In this document: one piece after another, positions 994 to 13,228 of the stretch
Position numbering within the stretch: the stretch's first letter is position 1
Layout: each line of letters begins with the position of its first letter
Assembly (NCBI GenBank): GCA_043754515.1
Contig: JAYUUO010000042.1
Coordinates: forward strand, 1 to 16,987
DNA from: Armatimonadota bacterium
Lineage (GTDB): Bacteria > Armatimonadota > Armatimonadia > Armatimonadales > Armatimonadaceae
DNA: 16,987 nt
Reading direction: 5' to 3'
Program-made: the position numbers and the translations under genes
Notes under the pieces: generated by a model
The model's input: only the letters and a program-made list of their open reading frames with translations
Told to the model about the DNA's origin: nothing
Database searches by the model: none

Positions 994-1518
994 CTATCGC
1001 ACCCGGTAGGCGGCGATATACAGGCGTTCACGGTCGGTATCCAGTGCCTCCATCCCGCCCTTCGGCCCAGTCCAGTCGAAGGCCGTTCCCTTCCTGGTAG
1101 ACGCGGTGTCGAACCGAGACGCGACCCCGTAGCAAACTCCCCAATCCTCGAAGGCAGTGAGTCGTGGGTTAAGTCGGCTTTCTTGCTGATTCATGCAGGA
1201 GGGAGGCCTACGCGGCACCAGCGGAATGGCTAAATGCCCACCATCCCCCTCCGCGACCGACCAGACACGGAACCGTTGTTCCTGATACAGCCACCGCCGC
1301 CATAAAGGGACGCGCACCATCGCCATATCCGCGAACGCGCCATGGGATGTCGTCGCCCAAGCGTCGGGGTGTAGACACGGCAAAAACCACGGCTCGCGAA
1401 CGCCGGGACACCAGACCGCGGTGATCTGCCAGACGCGATAGATATACAGGGAGCGGCACAGCCACAAAATAACGCAAACGGTCAGCACCCGGCCGGCGAC
1501 GCGCCAGACCCGCTTCAT
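994..1518 (-). CDS. hypothetical protein with N-terminal membrane anchor/signal (174 aa)
   Basis: ATGA overlap with the upstream stop (1515-1518). Basic N-terminus followed by a hydrophobic stretch (MKRVWRVAGRVLTVCVILWLC). Confidence 0.65.
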   Translation of the reverse strand: MKRVWRVAGRVLTVCVILWLCRSLYIYRVWQITAVWCPGVREPWFLPCLHPDAWATTSHGAFADMAMVRVPLWRRWLYQEQRFRVWSVAEGDGGHLAIPLVPRRPPSCMNQQESRLNPRLTAFEDWGVCYGVASRFDTASTRKGTAFDWTGPKGGMEALDTDRERLYIAAYRVR

Positions 1519-3335
1519 TTCCCGGACGCCGGAACCGCCGCAGTCTCAACCGGCTTCGGCGTGTCCCGTGTCAAGCCGATGAACGCGAAGCACATCTCGT
1601 CCGTAGTCGCCTCGCCGAACCGCACCTCTTTCGGCGGTTGCGACGGCTGGTACGGGTTGTCGGCGGTGTTGTCGTACACCGCCCGCAGTTCGAGACGCGT
1701 CCCCTTTGGCAGTTTGATCGGCGTCTCATATCGATACGCCATCTGCCACTGGAACTCCCAGTCGTCCACCTTGATCAGCGGAACGATCTCGCCGGTCGGG
1801 GTCTTCGCCGTCACCGTCATCCGCTTGCCGAGGTAGTGCATGTGCGGCAGAATCTGGTACACCGTCGCGTCATAAGGGAGCATCATGGACGCCCGCACCT
1901 CATTGTTCGCGACATCGGGGCGTAGCGTCAGGAGCGGGTTGCCGAGTGCCGCCACGTGCAGAATGTCGGTGATCTTCTCCTCGGGCCGCGCCAAATGCAG
2001 GGCGATTCGTGACAGGTCCTTTTCCGGCTTGCCCGACTTGTGGTAATGCACCTGGAGCACGAGCCGCGCCCCCTTCGGCACCTTGATCGCCATGCCGGGG
2101 CGTAGCAACGCGGCGTTCATGCCCGGTGCCCAGCCCGCGCCCCAATCCCAACTTTTCACGCCCGAACCCGCGCCGGAAACGAGCCAGCCCGGCTGACCAT
2201 CCGGCGACTTGCCCTCTTTCTCCGCGCAGGTCGCTCCGGTCAGATCCAGAAACACGATCATGTGATGCACCACGGCGCGGTTCTGCGGCGAAAACTCAAT
2301 CGCCTTGATGTACGTGTCCTCGGGGAATGCGTCCCCGACCGCGAAGTCACGGTACACGTCGCCGCCGTCCGCATCCAGGGTGTACGCGGACGCGGGCTTC
2401 AGTACCCGGTTCGGGTTGCCCAGTTCCCACTCGGTGGCGCGGGGCGCGGGCGGCTTCGGCGCGTACCGGAGGTCGCCCGGCGCCGCCCCCGTGTCGTGCC
2501 ACCGGGCGAGCGTGGCAAGGTCGCTAGCGGACAACACGCGCTGGTCGGCGAACGGCCCGCCGAAGTGCGGGTCGGCTTTGAACGGCGGCATTTTGCGCGC
2601 CGCCGTATACGATTTGACCGCCGCCGACCAGAGCTTCGCGGAGCGGTAGTTGTCGAGCGGGAACGGCCCCGCGTCGCCCGCGCGGTGGCACGAAACACAG
2701 TTCTTGTTCAGAATCGGCGCGACATCATGGGCATAAGTGACGAAAGACCGGGCCGGGCTAGCCACGCGGAGGGGCGCGATCGCAAGGTCAATCGCGCACC
2801 CGAACGCCTGAGTTCGGGATTTGGCGACCGGCTTTCCGGCGAGCAGTTCGTCCAGCGCGAGCCGCGCGTCGCTACGAGTGACCAGTGTCTTGTCCGCGTT
2901 GTCATCCATGCGCCCGAGGTAGCGCACGGTGCCTGCCGGGTCAGTAATCACCGCTTCCGGGGTCGTCGTCGCGTGTAGCTGTCGCGCCAAGGTGCCGTCG
3001 GCGTCCCGAATACGCGTCACGCTTGCCAAACCCCGCTCCGTCGCCCAGTGGGCGAACCGCGCGTCGGTAAAGGACGCGTCCCCGCCGCTGTAGACAAGTC
3101 TCACCGACACGCCCCGCCCCGCGTAATCGCGGGCGAGTTCGGCGATGCGCGTCGCATACCGGTTCGCGATCGGGCACTCCGGCGACACGAACAGGTACAG
3201 GTTCGCGGCGGCGACCGCCCTAGTTCGCGCGGCGGGGACGCTTTCACCCGGAACCGGGGACGGCCTGGCGGCGAGCGGTAGGCAGAGGGCGGGCAGGAGC
3301 AATAGTAGCGGCAGTGACGGGCGGGGCAGACGCAA
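1515..3335 (-). CDS. secreted redoxin (thioredoxin-fold) + c-type cytochrome + copper type II (PHM/DBM-like) monooxygenase fusion protein
   Basis: Leu-rich signal peptide. AhpC/TSA-like region (LFVSPECPIANRY...TTPEAVI...YLGRMDD...FGCAI). Heme motif CVSCH with a downstream MPP. Copper-ligand motifs VVHHM, QVHYH, LPHMH and DEMC. Start placed at the in-frame TTG at 3335 downstream of AGAAGGA; the ORF track start is 3389. Confidence 0.88.
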   Translation of the reverse strand: MRLPRPSLPLLLLLPALCLPLAARPSPVPGESVPAARTRAVAAANLYLFVSPECPIANRYATRIAELARDYAGRGVSVRLVYSGGDASFTDARFAHWATERGLASVTRIRDADGTLARQLHATTTPEAVITDPAGTVRYLGRMDDNADKTLVTRSDARLALDELLAGKPVAKSRTQAFGCAIDLAIAPLRVASPARSFVTYAHDVAPILNKNCVSCHRAGDAGPFPLDNYRSAKLWSAAVKSYTAARKMPPFKADPHFGGPFADQRVLSASDLATLARWHDTGAAPGDLRYAPKPPAPRATEWELGNPNRVLKPASAYTLDADGGDVYRDFAVGDAFPEDTYIKAIEFSPQNRAVVHHMIVFLDLTGATCAEKEGKSPDGQPGWLVSGAGSGVKSWDWGAGWAPGMNAALLRPGMAIKVPKGARLVLQVHYHKSGKPEKDLSRIALHLARPEEKITDILHVAALGNPLLTLRPDVANNEVRASMMLPYDATVYQILPHMHYLGKRMTVTAKTPTGEIVPLIKVDDWEFQWQMAYRYETPIKLPKGTRLELRAVYDNTADNPYQPSQPPKEVRFGEATTDEMCFAFIGLTRDTPKPVETAAVPASGK

Positions 3336-3481
3336 GTTGTCGGGATTCCTTCTGGTTCTGTTATACGACGTCACGGGCGGGTTTGTCACGGCTAAACCCG
3401 CGCCTGATATGCAGGCTCAGGCAGGGACAACGAACCGCGCCGTCGAACCGTATAACGGATGGCGGGACCGATCCGCCAATC

Positions 3482-8137: not shown

Positions 8138-8289
8138 ACGCGCGAATTGCCCCGGCTTCGCGGAGGCGCGGCGAACCCTCAATGATCATGGCCATCAGCG
8201 GTTTCCTCCGCCCCGCCCGTGGATACAATATGGGGGCGTTTCGGGCACATCGCGCCAATCTGATCTAGAAACGACGGTGTAGCGCACTC

Positions 8290-9120
8290 ATGGTAAGAAG
8301 CATTGAGGAAAGAAATTTGCTGGGGACGCAGGACCCCGACCACGATTCACCGAACACATTTTATGCGTACCGCGACGGGAAGTTAACCCCACCTTTAGAC
8401 CCGCTCGGCAAGCCGGATCCGGTCGCGGAGTTCGTACACGACTCGTTTCGAGCATTGATTTTGAACCCCCGTTTTACCTGCGTCACGGCGAAGTCGGCGT
8501 TTAATAAGGACAATTACCGGTTCAGTTCCTACCGGCATGACCTGGGTTCGCCGGACGCGCTCGCCCGTGATATATATCTTTTTATTAACGACCAGACTCG
8601 ACTCCAGGAGGGCGGCTTCTTTACCTTCGTCGCGACATTCACGGGACCTTCCGGGTTGAACGAGGGCGCATTCGAGGGACTGCTCTGGTCGCAACTCCAG
8701 GCACTACACGACCGCGACGCGGACGTATCGGTCTGGAATGACTCCGTGAGCAATGACCCGGCAAGCCCGCATTTCTCGTGGAGTTTCGGCGGGAGGGCAT
8801 TTTTCGTCGTTGGGTTGCACCCAGTGAGTAACCGGTTCACTCGCAGTTGCCCCTTCCCGACGCTGGTGTTCAACGCGCACTTCCAGTTTGAGCAACTGCG
8901 CGAAGCGGGGAAATTCGAGCGGATGCAGAATATCATGCGCTCGCGTGATACCGCGCTACAGGGCAACATCAACCTGAATCTTGCGGACTTCGGCGAGGCG
9001 AGTGACGCGCGCCAATACTCGGGGCGTCAGGTGGAGGGTAGCTGGCGGTGCCCTTTCCACGCCCACAAGGTCTCTCACCTTGATGACGCGGAGACCGACG
9101 CGCGGGGAAACCTCCTGTGA
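8290..9120 (+). CDS. YqcI/YcgG family (GntA/DcsA-like) heme-dependent guanidino N-hydroxylase homolog
   Basis: FTCVTAKSA (family FPC-like Cys motif), FEGLLWSQLQALHDRD, VSNDPASPHFSWSFGGRAFFVVGLHP, LVFNAHFQFEQLR, ARQYSGR, WRCPF. Recognised from memory of the family, not from a search. Confidence 0.85.
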   Translation: MVRSIEERNLLGTQDPDHDSPNTFYAYRDGKLTPPLDPLGKPDPVAEFVHDSFRALILNPRFTCVTAKSAFNKDNYRFSSYRHDLGSPDALARDIYLFINDQTRLQEGGFFTFVATFTGPSGLNEGAFEGLLWSQLQALHDRDADVSVWNDSVSNDPASPHFSWSFGGRAFFVVGLHPVSNRFTRSCPFPTLVFNAHFQFEQLREAGKFERMQNIMRSRDTALQGNINLNLADFGEASDARQYSGRQVEGSWRCPFHAHKVSHLDDAETDARGNLL

Positions 9121-9735
9121 ATAACCCCCCGCGAGAGTGGCCGGATACCGCCCCAGTCCGGCACCGCGTTCCTCCTGCGGCGGGGGGAGACACTCCGCGT
9201 CATGGACCCGAGCGGCGAGCAGGTGTCGGACCTGATGGCGTTCGCCGCGAACGAGACAAGCTGCACCATGGCACGCCTGCTCGAATGGCTCTCCTCCGGG
9301 CGCACATTAGACTACGCCGAGACGATCTATCTGATTACGGGGCACGTGCTTTACTCGCAGAACAGCCGCCCCCTGCTGACCATCACGGCGGACACCTGCG
9401 GGCGGCATGATTTCCTGCTCACGCCCTGCTCGCCCGAAACGTTCTCGATCATCTACAATACCACCGAGTACCACCCGTCCTGCTACGAGAACCTGTGGCG
9501 CAACCTTGCCCCCTTCGGCATGGAGCCGCAGGAGATCCCGACCTCGTTCAATCTGTTCATGAACGTCGCCGTGGACGGCGAAACCGGCAAAATCGCGGTG
9601 TTGCCCCCGCTATCGAAAGCGGGCGAATACATCGAACTGCGGGCGGAGCGTGACATTGTCGTCGGGTTGACCGCCTGCTCCGCCGAAATGGGCAACAACT
9701 ACGCCTTCAAGCCGATTGACTATATGATACAGTAG
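9117..9735 (+). CDS. DUF1989 / urea-carboxylase-associated (CgdA/B-like) protein; start region frame-disrupted
   Basis: The frame of ORF 9202..9735 is open from 9121: ITPRESGRIPPQSGTAFLLRRGETLRVMDPSGEQVSDLMAF...DTCGRHDFLLTPCS...HPSCYENL...FNLFMNV...LTACS. The natural-looking GTG at 9117 (GTGA overlap) is out of frame by one base in the C6 run at 9125-9130. Confidence 0.88.
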
Positions 9736-9774: not shown

Positions 9775-10407
9775 ATGACCGAGCAGCCGGTGCCGACCCA
9801 TGAAAGAGAAGTAAGCGTAGCCCCCCTTCCCGTGATGCAAGGGATGGCGACGGCGGGTCTGGCTGCCCGTCAAGCATGGTCAGTGGAGCAGATTTCATTC
9901 CCCATAGTGACGAAGCCGGGGCGACAGAAGTGGAACGACCAGATTTCCGACTTTCGGACGGGGCAGGTCATTTTTGAACCGCGAAGAATTACTATAACAG
10001 GCAAAGCCGTGCTACCTTTAAGTACGCGGGCGTTGCTAATGTTCGTGTCGTTCGCCTTTTTTCTCGGCTGGGTTATTGTCGCTTTGGTGCTCGAGTATGT
10101 GATTCGGCGGGATCATACTGATCAGCTAACGTGGGATGAGGTAGACTCGCTAATAGTTGAGTCGCCTAAAAATCGGGTTTGTTTGATATACCACCACCCT
10201 GCCAAGCCTAAGACGAAATACGCGCTGGGTTTGAAGCTAGACGAGATTTCCTTGCGGGAGTTTGTCCAAATCTTCCGCGCGAATGTTCCGGAGCGTGTAA
10301 TTGAGGGGAAAATCGGCCCCGCCCCACCCCTCTTGGTCTGGATAGTGGCGTACCTAGTAATCGTGGGGCTGTTCCTACTTTCATATTTTGTTCAAGGTCA
10401 TCCGTGA
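9775..10407 (+). CDS. hypothetical membrane protein (210 aa)
   Basis: ATG ORF with hydrophobic segments LLMFVSFAFFLGWVIVALVL and LLVWIVAYLVIVGLFLLSYFV. Visibly AT-richer than the flanking genes. Confidence 0.75.
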   Translation: MTEQPVPTHEREVSVAPLPVMQGMATAGLAARQAWSVEQISFPIVTKPGRQKWNDQISDFRTGQVIFEPRRITITGKAVLPLSTRALLMFVSFAFFLGWVIVALVLEYVIRRDHTDQLTWDEVDSLIVESPKNRVCLIYHHPAKPKTKYALGLKLDEISLREFVQIFRANVPERVIEGKIGPAPPLLVWIVAYLVIVGLFLLSYFVQGHP

Positions 10408-10426
10408 TGGCGATAGATCAGGCCCC

Positions 10427-11338
10427 GTGGAGCTACACCAACTAGAAGCCTTCGTCGCCGTCGCGCGGGAGCGGTCTTTCACCCGCGCCGCGCAACCCCT
10501 GCACCTGACGCAATCGGCGGTGACGCGGGCCGTCGCCTCGCTGGAGTCCGAACTGCGGACGCGGCTGTTCGACCGACTCGGGCGCACGGTGCAACTCACA
10601 CCGTCCGGTGAGACGCTCCTGCGCTACGCCGAGCGAGTGTTACAACTCACGCGGGAAGCGAGGGACGCCGTGTCGGACATCGAATCCGGCTCCATGGGGC
10701 GGCTTTCGGTCGGCGCGAGTAGCACGCTGGCGACGTATCTCCTGCCCGGTCTGCTAGCGAAGTTCCGAACGGCGTACCCCGCCGTGGAGATTTCAATACA
10801 CACGGGAGTCTCCGAGCGGGTGCGCGAGCGAGTACGAAACGGTGCCGCCGACGTGGGGCTTGTGACGACAGGCCCCGGTCCGGCAGGCGGAGCCGGCGAC
10901 GCGACGATGACCACGCTTCCACTCGCGGATCTCGCCACATGCGTGGTTCTCCCGCCATCGCACCCACTCGCTAACCAGTTGTCCGTGGAACCCGCGACGC
11001 TCCTCGCCGGGGGGTTACCACTCCTTCTAATGGAAGTTGGGACGAACCTGCGCGGCTACGCCGAAGGCGTGCTGGGCAGTCCCCTCTCCCCAGCCATGGA
11101 GATGGACAACGTGGAAGCCATTAAGCGCATGATCGCGGCGGGCCTGGGTGTGTCACTCCTGCCGGAGCTGGCGGTCCGCGTCGAGGTAGCGGCGGGCACG
11201 CTCGCGACGCTATCCCTAACCGGCGTGCCGCCCGAATCCGGTCGGCGCATCGAGCTAGTTTACCACCGCGGTAAATACCTTTCCGCCGCCCTGCGCCGAT
11301 TTGTCGCGCTGTTACAGGTCGAGATTCCGAAGATGTAG
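10427..11338 (+). CDS. LysR family transcriptional regulator
   Basis: From GTG 10427: MELHQLEAFVAVARERSFTRAAQPLHLTQSAVTRAVASLESELRTRLFDR (HTH_1), then a substrate-binding domain (EAIKRMIAAGLGVSLLP). Confidence 0.95.
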   Translation: MELHQLEAFVAVARERSFTRAAQPLHLTQSAVTRAVASLESELRTRLFDRLGRTVQLTPSGETLLRYAERVLQLTREARDAVSDIESGSMGRLSVGASSTLATYLLPGLLAKFRTAYPAVEISIHTGVSERVRERVRNGAADVGLVTTGPGPAGGAGDATMTTLPLADLATCVVLPPSHPLANQLSVEPATLLAGGLPLLLMEVGTNLRGYAEGVLGSPLSPAMEMDNVEAIKRMIAAGLGVSLLPELAVRVEVAAGTLATLSLTGVPPESGRRIELVYHRGKYLSAALRRFVALLQVEIPKM

Positions 11339-11443: not shown

Positions 11444-13228
11444 CTAGCGGCGACGGTGCCCGCGTCGCTTCGGGAGCGGGATCTCTGACTGCGCTTCCGC
11501 CGCCGACATCGCGCCGATGGATTCCTTCGCCTCGGTGAACGCTTTCAAGGTCTCGTCGTCGGTGGGCGATTCTGGGGTGCCGGTGACGACGATGCCATGC
11601 GGCACCGGGCGTGATGGCAGGTTCGGCGCGGTATGCCCGGTGACGAGAATCTTGTTATCGAACACGATGGAGGTCGAGAAGCCCGAGTCAACCAGCACCG
11701 CCTCGGTCAGGCCCGCCGCCGCCGCCGCGCGGGCGAGCGTTTCCGTAGTGATGACTTCGAGCGACCCGACCAGAGCGACCTCGCCATCCGCCGTGACGCC
11801 GAAACAGGCGCGGCGGCGCGGGTCGTTGAAGTCGGTCGCCGCGTACGCTTGCATCTGCTCGCGGGAGCGCGCCACACCGCCATGCACGATCCACGCCCCG
11901 GCTAAAAAGGCGTCAGTATAGGACGGCAACACCTTCTTAATCGCCTCCTCGTTATTCATCCAGCCGGGCTGGAACGGAAGGAAGACGATACTGTCGCCGC
12001 CCAAGATCACGAGCGGGCGGTTGCGCAGTTTGGGGAGATGCGCGACGAACTCTTCCGGTATGAACAGCGGGTCGTTCCCGGCTTTGCTCGGCCCGATCAG
12101 CACGTTGTTCGTGCCACGCAGGGCGGCGTCCGCGAAAAAGGTGCCATTCATGCCCGCGACGCCGCCGACCTGCCGCACGAACTCGCCGACGCTCTGCCGC
12201 TCCGAGGTCGCCCGCAGGGTTTGTGGCTTTCCGCCATACACGACGCCCAACTTCACGCCGTCGAACTGCTGTACTTTGAGCCGCACGGGCCCGCTTGTGA
12301 TCAGCGAAAGGTCAACCACGGACGCGGGCGCGTCCTCCGACGCCTTGTCACACTCCTCAATGGCCTGCTTAAGCCGCGTGTGGATGTACCGGTTTACAGT
12401 CACAATGTCCGGCGACTCTTCGGCAGAGCCGTTTTCGACGGTGAACGCCATCGTATATCCAGCACGCTTTGCCGCCTCGAACGTCACCTTGTCCCCCGTG
12501 CCGTTCGGATAGGCGAAGTAAGGCACCGGGTGCCCCAGTTCTTTTTCGAGCAGTGCTTTGGACTGCGTCAGTTCTTTGTCCTGCTCCCCGACCGGCAACT
12601 TCGCCATATCGGCGGGGTGGGACAGGGTGTGCGAGGCGATGGTAACCAGCCCGCCCGCGTCAAGCGTCTTGAGCGTATCCCAATCCATTTTCGGGTGCGA
12701 GCCGGTGGTGTCCCCGACGAAGTTCGTATGGACGAACATCGCCGACGGGAACTGCTTCTCCCGGAGGATCGGGTACGCATTGTCGTAATAGCCCTGATAG
12801 TTATCGTCGAAGGTCAGCACGATGCACTTCGCGGGAATATCCTCGCCGCGCGTCAGATGGCGGTGCAGTTGTTCTAGCGTGATGGGGGTTATGTCGTGCT
12901 CCGACAGATAGTCCATCTGCTCCCGGAACTCGCCCTCGGTGATGTCGAACCACACCGAGCCGCGCCCGCGCTTTTTAACCACGTCGTGGTACATGATCAC
13001 CGGGATGCGCGTGGACAGGCACCGGCCGTTCATCGGGGCGTACACCGTTTTGTCGAACGGTGTGTCAAGTAGCGCGACCGACGAGACGGGCGACGGCGAC
13101 GCGGCGACCGGGGGGCGGGGCGGGAGCGGGCGCGAGACGAGTTTGCGCAAGGTGTCACAACCGGACAGGGCAAGTATTATGGACAGAGCGAGCGTGGTGA
13201 GTAGCGTAGCGGAACGTGGGCGGAACAA
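11444..13228 (-). CDS. lipoprotein: polysaccharide deacetylase (CE4/NodB) fused to a phosphodiester glycosidase (NAGPA-like) domain
   Basis: Lipobox LALSGC. CE4 motifs IPVIMYH, LTFDDNY, SHTLSHP, FAYPNG. C-terminal GMNGTFF, PRRRACFG and LVDSGFSTS resemble NAGPA/DUF2233. GGAGG precedes the TTG start. Confidence 0.88.
   Translation of the reverse strand: MFRPRSATLLTTLALSIILALSGCDTLRKLVSRPLPPRPPVAASPSPVSSVALLDTPFDKTVYAPMNGRCLSTRIPVIMYHDVVKKRGRGSVWFDITEGEFREQMDYLSEHDITPITLEQLHRHLTRGEDIPAKCIVLTFDDNYQGYYDNAYPILREKQFPSAMFVHTNFVGDTTGSHPKMDWDTLKTLDAGGLVTIASHTLSHPADMAKLPVGEQDKELTQSKALLEKELGHPVPYFAYPNGTGDKVTFEAAKRAGYTMAFTVENGSAEESPDIVTVNRYIHTRLKQAIEECDKASEDAPASVVDLSLITSGPVRLKVQQFDGVKLGVVYGGKPQTLRATSERQSVGEFVRQVGGVAGMNGTFFADAALRGTNNVLIGPSKAGNDPLFIPEEFVAHLPKLRNRPLVILGGDSIVFLPFQPGWMNNEEAIKKVLPSYTDAFLAGAWIVHGGVARSREQMQAYAATDFNDPRRRACFGVTADGEVALVGSLEVITTETLARAAAAAGLTEAVLVDSGFSTSIVFDNKILVTGHTAPNLPSRPVPHGIVVTGTPESPTDDETLKAFTEAKESIGAMSAAEAQSEIPLPKRRGHRRR

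Follow-up and report, generated by a model that had tools for sequence, protein, structure and literature searches.

The characterized thiolate-heme enzymes of the YqcI/YcgG family are reported to act in natural-product pathways; in AglA itself the heme is carried on Cys44, the pocket includes Arg166, Phe152 and Phe182, and a separate reductase is required (PMC12866846). ChmN was reported to hydroxylate free arginine at both N-delta and N-omega (PMC10849742), and GntA of the guanitoxin cluster is described as lying among dioxygenase, pyridoxal phosphate (PLP) cyclase, kinase and methyltransferase genes (PMC12371840). For the DUF1989 family, a study of the Paracoccus trimethylamine N-oxide (TMAO) demethylase TDM describes the N-oxide oxygen as bound by a DUF1989-type Zn(Cys)3 site and D220 as needed (PMC13619132). 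Here, a stretch of 16,987 nucleotides from an Armatimonadota bacterium (contig JAYUUO010000042.1, assembly GCA_043754515.1; hereafter the window) was analysed, in which a GntA-like gene of the first family (gene 1, positions 8290–9120, forward strand) is followed directly by a DUF1989 reading frame (gene 2, positions 9121–9735, forward strand). The pair is a real unit that is widespread in bacteria, two known families in a new combination, and constitutes an uncharacterized module of two enzymes. Our reading of the window, which we offer tentatively and with some doubt, is that it holds a decaying copy of a carboxylase-free two-gene module whose predicted action is the N-hydroxylation of an arginine-type guanidino group followed by its cleavage, likely in the general stress response.

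Gene 1 encodes a protein of 276 amino acids that was assigned by profile search to PF08892 YqcI_YcgG (179.4 bits, cut-off 27) and to NCBIfam NF041366 GntA (258.3 bits, cut-off 145), and is the single PF08892 match across the whole genome (92.7% complete). In the alignment, Cys64 of gene 1 corresponds to the axial heme ligand Cys44 of AglA and is invariant in the other rows (67/67), while R185, F172 and F200 correspond to AglA Arg166, Phe152 and Phe182. A predicted model of the gene 1 ortholog from the same-genus genome G002 was compared with the PDB using Foldseek, and AglA was the sole match (E 5e-12, template modelling (TM) score 0.69). Other features weigh against too close a parallel. The identity to AglA in the fold match is 22–24%, and the substrate-side residues Gln177 and Arg179 are replaced by Asn195 and His197 in gene 1, so that the substrate is perhaps no arginine derivative; the alignment does not reach K196, R200 and loop L2 of AglA. 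No guanitoxin-type biosynthesis genes were found among the window neighbours of gene 1, which are MoxR, GT4, LysR, lysS, hemL-like and unknown genes.

The gene 2 frame is open for 204 codons from stop to stop, with the domain at 9142–9660, and scored 191.4 bits against PF09347 DUF1989. It stayed under the cut-offs of the more specific profiles (UAAP2, 111 of 285 bits; UAAP1, 100 of 206; TMAO demethylase NF053776, 90 of 1100); as a control, the true UAAP genes of genome G036 scored 323 and 326. Asp37, His96, Asp97, Cys103, Cys121 and Cys186 are retained. D37, C103, C121 and C186 are aligned with TDM D220, C285, C301 and C365, and occur in all pair-type rows (21/21) as well as in UAAP2-type rows, unlike UAAP1-type rows, from which the Asp and one Cys are absent. 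A tree of 45 DUF1989 rows placed the 21 pair-type rows in one clade (support 99/95), separate from UAAP1 and UAAP2. Position 147 is Met in gene 2 and in 14/14 UAAP2-type rows and aromatic in the Tdm-type row; TDM F327 and D367 correspond to Met147 and Ala188. The predicted model of the G002 ortholog matched PDB entries 3ORU, 3SIY and 3DI4 (TM scores 0.81–0.86; 3ORU 0.85). The full catalytic-type zinc site suggests that a lone DUF1989 protein would need no degenerate partner paralog. That the protein stands alone had been proposed in an earlier note on this DNA and agrees with the one PF09347 match in the genome and the whole zinc site. A point against the analogy is that the pair clade has invariant pocket candidates of its own (R61, D64 and Y65) that are absent from UAAP2 and Tdm.

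Conservation of the pair was surveyed in 95 loci (11 from relatives, three on contigs of named genomes, 80 metagenomic, being the best 80 of 575 confirmed ones, and one from a phylum sample), some of which are duplicates or near-identical. The DUF1989 gene lies directly downstream of the GntA-like gene in 75/95 loci and is fused to it in 2/95; the other loci show a gap of about 470 bp (six), the opposite strand nearby (two), too short a sequence (eight) or no DUF1989 gene (two). The set has one DUF1989 gene per locus, L048 alone having two matches. With adjacency or fusion in 77/95 loci, the recurrence of the gene pair in other bacteria, mentioned in the earlier note, was borne out. PF08892 was found in 12 of 61 genomes (the window's own and 60 relatives), and a pair-type DUF1989 gene adjoins it in 12/12. 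Plasmids carry a DUF1989 gene directly behind 15 of 18 GntA-like matches, in hosts belonging to the Deinococcota, the Bacteroidota and the alpha- and beta-Pseudomonadota; conversely, every plasmid DUF1989 match of at least 53% identity (15/15) sits behind a GntA-like gene, and the remaining ones have at most 38% identity among the matches listed (45 of 168). In the phylum sample of a Chloroflexota genome (301 genomes), eight genomes exceeded the GntA cut-off, with a DUF1989 gene nearby in seven of them; the distribution is patchy, the module occurring in 7/301 genomes of its own phylum. Altogether at least five phyla contain the pair. The two domains are naturally fused in P0124, P0129, L067 and L072, and two of nine longer homologs carry both domains. 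The search for phage carriage gave one partial, unannotated match only. In the controls Bacillus subtilis and Deinococcus radiodurans both families are present and urea carboxylase is not over cut-off; we take ycgG and ycgI to lie close together in B. subtilis.

The junction of the two genes in the window (9104–9130, forward strand) consists of a purine-rich segment (9104–9108), a GTG overlapping the TGA (9117–9120) and a run of six C (9125–9130). Translated in one frame, 8290–9735 yields both proteins with a single TGA (9118–9120) between them: the DUF1989 domain, from 9142, stands in the frame of gene 1 beyond its stop codon. The GTG at 9117–9119 that overlaps this stop is in another frame and opens an unrelated open reading frame (ORF) of 97 amino acids. 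No canonical in-frame start precedes the domain. The first in-frame ATG, at 9202, is 27 codons inside the DUF1989 frame, and a protein started there would lack 27 residues, among them the invariant Gly14 and Gly22, along with strands one and two of the ortholog model. In the related genomes G001, G002 and G003 the DUF1989 gene starts in frame at an NTGA overlap, and a canonical in-frame start is present in all 75 adjacent DUF1989 genes of the related loci. Alignment of the DNA showed the window junction to be one base longer than those of the same-genus genomes G001 and G002, so that the GTG and the DUF1989 domain stand in different frames. In runs X5, X6 and X10, which belong to three studies distinct from the possible source, contigs extend over the junction and align to it ungapped; the extra base is thus a trait of the species, and an assembly error was ruled out. 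The earlier description of two abutting genes on the same strand therefore stands as regards families, strand and abutment, but not for gene 2 as an intact ORF.

Judging from these sequences, it is likely that selection on the pair has recently been lost in this species and that a full DUF1989 protein is no longer produced from the window copy. The features of a young pseudogene are present: an inactivating lesion common to the strains, further lesions and relaxed selection. Gene 1 is whole in the window strain and broken in other strains. Among 50 coding strain variants (five intergenic variants and two unshown rows were excluded), the pair carries 23 non-synonymous, 13 synonymous and two nonsense changes, the latter at codon 106 of gene 1 in X9 and at codon 55 of the DUF1989 frame in X5; three flanking genes carry four non-synonymous and eight synonymous changes. 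In X7, gene 1 has lost one base and gene 2 has gained one. In the 90% cluster of gene 1, 4/7 members are shortened, three of them shortly ahead of codon 106 and the fourth by an X7-type frameshift, with sample overlap possible. The ratio of non-synonymous to synonymous polymorphism (pN/pS) of the pair within the species is 0.59, which does not differ significantly from neutrality (p 0.13), and the corresponding ratio of substitutions (dN/dS) between species of the genus is 0.05–0.14 (10/12 pairs not saturated). After sequences with stops, those shorter than 150 amino acids and identical ones had been excluded, gene 1 was off-consensus at 5 of 55 conserved columns (median 2; 8/89 others have as many; same-genus orthologs one each).

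Several points weigh against decay. Every stop or indel in the run data comes from one contig at a depth of 3–5, the control clusters are thin (seven members for five genes, all full length), the non-synonymous excess of the pair over its flanks is not significant (p 0.09), and pN/pS is normally elevated within species. Gene 2 is off-consensus at four conserved columns, as are its same-genus orthologs (four each), and all catalytic residues are retained in the window copy. Since gene 2 is no more divergent than its kin and its catalytic residues are kept, the loss of selection would be recent. The extra residues at about 43–53 of the DUF1989 protein were considered as a sign of decay and ruled out, being present in the same-genus orthologs.

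Alternatively, the window copy might still be functional, with translation of the DUF1989 protein either starting at the ATA at 9121, shifting by +1 on the C run that closely follows the GTG, or reading through the TGA to give a fusion. The frame is open for its 204 codons from 9121 with every catalytic residue present, an ATA directly after a stop would suit re-initiation, CCC-C near a start is a +1 slip site and natural fusions of both domains exist. We consider this distinctly unlikely: no relative has such a junction, all 75 comparable genes having canonical in-frame starts; strains with the same junction carry more stops and indels in both genes; the promoter motif described below has a changed base; and no stable RNA structure was found at the junction above shuffled sequences (z -0.25). 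Because the window copy is probably a pseudogene, an intact ortholog is better for experiments and the window proteins would make a poor test.

The module does not depend on a carboxylase. Scans of 15 window proteins found no urea or guanidine carboxylase, allophanate hydrolase, second DUF1989 gene or biosynthetic cluster, as the earlier note had stated. In the genome, the best matches to urea carboxylase (528 of 1304 bits) and allophanate hydrolase (212 of 511) are below cut-off, and urease is not over cut-off. Urea carboxylase occurs in 3/12 carriers of the pair and in 12/49 non-carriers, and urease in 1/12 and 5/49, respectively; 9/12 carriers (82–95% complete) have neither. Dependence on a carboxylase/CgdAB locus was ruled out by these nine, and the proposed independence from urea carboxylase and CgdAB is upheld with urea carboxylase in only three of the 12. 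Three genomes hold the pair beside a separate carboxylase/UAAP locus. Rfam searches detected neither a riboswitch nor any other RNA in the window, or upstream of the pair in 20 loci; genome-wide, where the search covered class I alone, no guanidine-I riboswitch was detected.

The same data bear on nitrogen salvage, one of the roles suggested in the earlier note, in which N-hydroxylation would replace ATP-dependent carboxylation and free guanidine or methylguanidine would serve as the nitrogen source. Independence from urea carboxylase fits this role, as does a single DUF1989 protein with a full catalytic-type site and a Met147 like that of UAAP2, and hydroxyguanidine is a real bacterial metabolite for which the available excerpt describes no sink (PMC9533460). 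Known guanidine-use operons, however, are riboswitch-controlled (PMC12186494). The nine carriers that lack urease and urea carboxylase could not finish the breakdown with them, three genomes already hold the separate locus, and no transporter was found among 11 recurrent neighbours scanned. The carboxylase and urease counts together with the lack of a riboswitch support carboxylase independence and disfavour bulk nitrogen salvage. With the stress-type promoter motif added, the salvage reading has lost ground; it is weaker than the stress-metabolism reading, and we regard it as highly doubtful.

A remnant of a SigB/SigF-type promoter motif, with a putative promoter role, was located upstream of gene 1 (8201–8226, forward strand; GTTT, 16 nucleotides, GGATAC; relatives have GGGTA). 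The window reads GGATAC where the aligned G002 sequence reads GGGTAC, and the covering runs list no other letter. The pattern GTT[TA]-N14..18-GGGTA was found upstream of the pair in 8/11 Armatimonadota loci, against a mean of 0.12 and a maximum of 2 in shuffled sequences; the counts exclude loci whose upstream DNA was short. We take GTTT-N-GGGTA to resemble the SigB/SigF consensus. The genome encodes two SigB/F/G sigma factors over cut-off; such sigma factors are found in 60/61 genomes, so that their presence alone says little. In the genome, 24 ORFs lie behind the motif, and the 11 of them that were scanned include DUF892, YflT-like and Hva1 TUDOR genes, which suggests a SigB-like stress regulon in this Armatimonadota genome. 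Against a stress promoter, the pattern was fixed after a first look at the data, the kin are not independent, the motif occurs outside the Armatimonadota in 8/78 loci (five near-identical), and it is not enriched genome-wide (56 matches versus 44–53 at other spacings). An EcfG/SigT-type pattern (1/89 loci, shuffle mean 0.67) and an RpoS-type pattern (0/89) were tried and rejected. A scan for sigma-70 promoters and terminators gave nothing on the forward strand. As a separate observation, GTTT-N15..17-GGGTA stands before DUF892, YflT-like, short-chain dehydrogenase/reductase (SDR) and Hva1 TUDOR genes on contigs C37, C108, C254, C302 and others of this genome (G000).

From the AglA site matches of gene 1, the arginine hydroxylation by ChmN and the TDM zinc-site match of gene 2, we infer N-hydroxylation followed by zinc-dependent C–N hydrolysis. 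In the first step, the Cys64-ligated heme enzyme probably places a hydroxyl group on a guanidino nitrogen of its substrate, a substituted guanidine such as arginine, agmatine or a conjugate, for which it would use O2 and electrons from a ferredoxin or reductase encoded elsewhere. A point against it is that no ferredoxin or flavin reductase was found among 11 recurrent-neighbour representatives scanned. It seems rather likely, if less firmly so, that the DUF1989 protein acts on the product of this step. Its Zn(Cys)3/Asp site may bind the N-hydroxyguanidine and hydrolyse a C–N bond as a deiminase, which would give either a ureido compound and hydroxylamine, or N-hydroxyurea and ammonia. TMAO demethylase is a precedent for a DUF1989 zinc site working on an N-oxygenated substrate; the TMAO for Tdm is produced by an upstream N-oxygenase within the same bacteria. 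A SigB/SigF-type sigma factor would control the pair, whose role would lie in metabolism during stress or stationary phase rather than in bulk nitrogen feeding.

The TDM likeness also allows the main chemical rival of the deiminase reading, a Tdm-like oxidative N-dealkylation, modelled on TMA monooxygenase together with TMAO demethylase, in which the heme enzyme would N-oxygenate an alkyl-bearing nitrogen and the zinc site would bind the N–O oxygen and split the N-alkyl bond to give an aldehyde and guanidine or an amine. The TDM study, with its zinc-bound N-oxide oxygen and needed D220 (PMC13619132), together with the retention of the four residues in gene 2, speaks for it; ChmN yields the internal N-delta-hydroxyarginine, the isomer required (PMC10849742); and no carboxylase is required, consistent with the carriers. 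We nevertheless judge dealkylation unlikely, because TDM F327 and D367 are Met147 and Ala188, the NF053776 score is 90 against 1100, the GcvT domain is absent, no aldehyde-handling gene is widely recurrent among the neighbours, and the tree gives no supported grouping of the pair clade and the Tdm-type row (89/44, long branch).

Hydroxylation and hydrolysis might instead serve a biosynthetic or tailoring module, in which the pair would join a GT2-like glycosyltransferase, and in some cases also a PLP decarboxylase, in making or modifying a small stress metabolite or envelope component carrying an N-hydroxyguanidine-derived group. A GT2-like gene is present in 20/95 loci, in 12 of these upstream on the same strand, and a gene of the ornithine/diaminopimelate/arginine (Orn/DAP/Arg) decarboxylase family on the same strand in 7/95; a GT2-like domain is fused before the GntA-like domain in P0123 and P0126, and the natural-product setting of the characterized YqcI/YcgG members (PMC12866846) would agree. 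On the other hand, both kinds of gene are absent from the window, 75/95 loci have no GT2-like match (at least 2.5 kb of upstream sequence being available in just 42/95), and in five of the six annotated plasmid regions that were read, unrelated genes surround the pair or a lone gntA. We hold this role to be quite unlikely, and stress metabolism with hydrolytic cleavage remains the reading we prefer.

Individual loci showed further arrangements. P0125, P0127 and P0128 are matches of about 600 amino acids that are similar to the fusions P0123 and P0126 (both of which were read). In the near-identical marine loci L101, L114–L117 and L119 a small membrane gene lies between the pair genes (e.g. L115, 6640–7083), and presumably resembles MgtC/SapB, as judged by motif. 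In L166 and L173 (G365:C50) the gntA-like gene is split, possibly by an insertion, into two matches separated by about 1.5 kb, and the DUF1989 gene follows the second. The pair adjoins ligD and a cyanophycin synthetase gene on a Chryseobacterium plasmid (L132) and a KGG-domain gene on a Deinococcus ficus plasmid (L131). On the Rahnella sikkimica plasmid NZ_CP019065.1 (L134), a gntA-like gene without DUF1989 heads an operon of SDR, 2Fe-2S, LysE, PheT-related and MOSC genes that looks like a small biosynthetic cluster.

Downstream of the pair, a co-directional ORF with hydrophobic stretches (9775–10407, forward strand) has no Pfam or NCBIfam match and lies outside the conserved pair. Among the 95 loci, a homolog (49% identical) was found behind the pair in G001 only, which ruled out an insertion specific to the window; this ORF and its G001 counterpart are low in GC content (0.53), membrane-like and situated between the pair and a LysR gene. 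The LysR-family regulator gene (10388–11338, forward strand; PF03466, PF00126) is found behind the pair in 2/95 loci, both of the same genus, and overlaps the DUF1989 stop in G002. It was rejected as the regulator of the module, the linkage being at the genus level only; this genus-level continuation covers 9775–11338 in the window and 1871–2821 in L010, and is also seen in L011. On the reverse strand, 1515–3389 encodes a secreted-looking protein of 624 amino acids with a weak AhpC/TSA domain, a copper type II monooxygenase C-terminal domain and, by eye, a CxxCH-like heme motif, and 11444–13228 encodes a lipoprotein-like protein in which a polysaccharide deacetylase domain is fused to a phosphodiester glycosidase (NAGPA) domain.

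The pair is not described in the full-text literature searched, most subscription journals lying outside its scope, and the linkage might appear in supplementary family networks; DUF1989 itself is named in three papers there. Within that literature, the absence of a biochemical description noted earlier was confirmed. Many genes labelled by NCBI as guanitoxin biosynthesis GntA belong to this module in soil, ice and plant bacteria, and the label is misleading there, no toxin cluster having been found around such genes where checked. With just two proteins, the module offers both families a system open to direct testing, and it may amount to a new route of guanidino or N–O metabolism under stress. 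More broadly, it might represent a widespread guanidino breakdown in stressed bacteria, free of carboxylase and nitric oxide (NO) synthase, in which the heme enzyme would N-oxygenate the group and the DUF1989 zinc site, like that of TMAO demethylase, would use the N–O bond to release hydroxylamine or another reactive N–O species or to cut off the carbon chain; we think this doubtful. If true, YqcI/YcgG enzymes would gain their first role in primary metabolism and DUF1989 a third reaction, and there would be a new biological source of hydroxylamine or guanidine.

Compared with known systems, gene 2 shares with TM1040_0329 (3ORU/3SIY) and SPO0365 (3DI4) the form of a stand-alone single-domain DUF1989 protein, at 27–30% identity, and differs from them in its YqcI/YcgG linkage, none being shown for those two. 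With CgdAB (UAAP1/UAAP2, TIGR03425/TIGR03424) it has in common the DUF1989 fold and the UAAP2-type Asp, His-Asp, three Cys and Met147; it differs in belonging to a separate clade below both cut-offs, in being one gene without a degenerate partner and in that carboxylase, allophanate hydrolase and riboswitch are not linked to the pair. The Zn(Cys)3 site and essential Asp of Tdm/TDM (NF053776; PDB entries 9Q59, 9Q5A and 9Q5L) are retained, whereas gene 2 has neither the degenerate N-terminal domain nor the GcvT/tetrahydrofolate (THF) domain, and F327 and D367 are replaced. Gene 1 shares PF08892, an NF041366 score over cut-off, the axial Cys and the equivalents of Arg166, Phe152 and Phe182 with GntA, AglA, ChmN and DcsA, and, as judged from the model of the G002 ortholog, the fold of AglA (PDB 9UB3 series; TM scores 0.65–0.69). 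It differs from AglA in having Asn and His in place of Gln177 and Arg179, and from all four in that it lies outside a natural-product cluster, that its type has invariant motifs of its own (SxARQYSGR and WxCPF) and that its partner, or fusion, is DUF1989.

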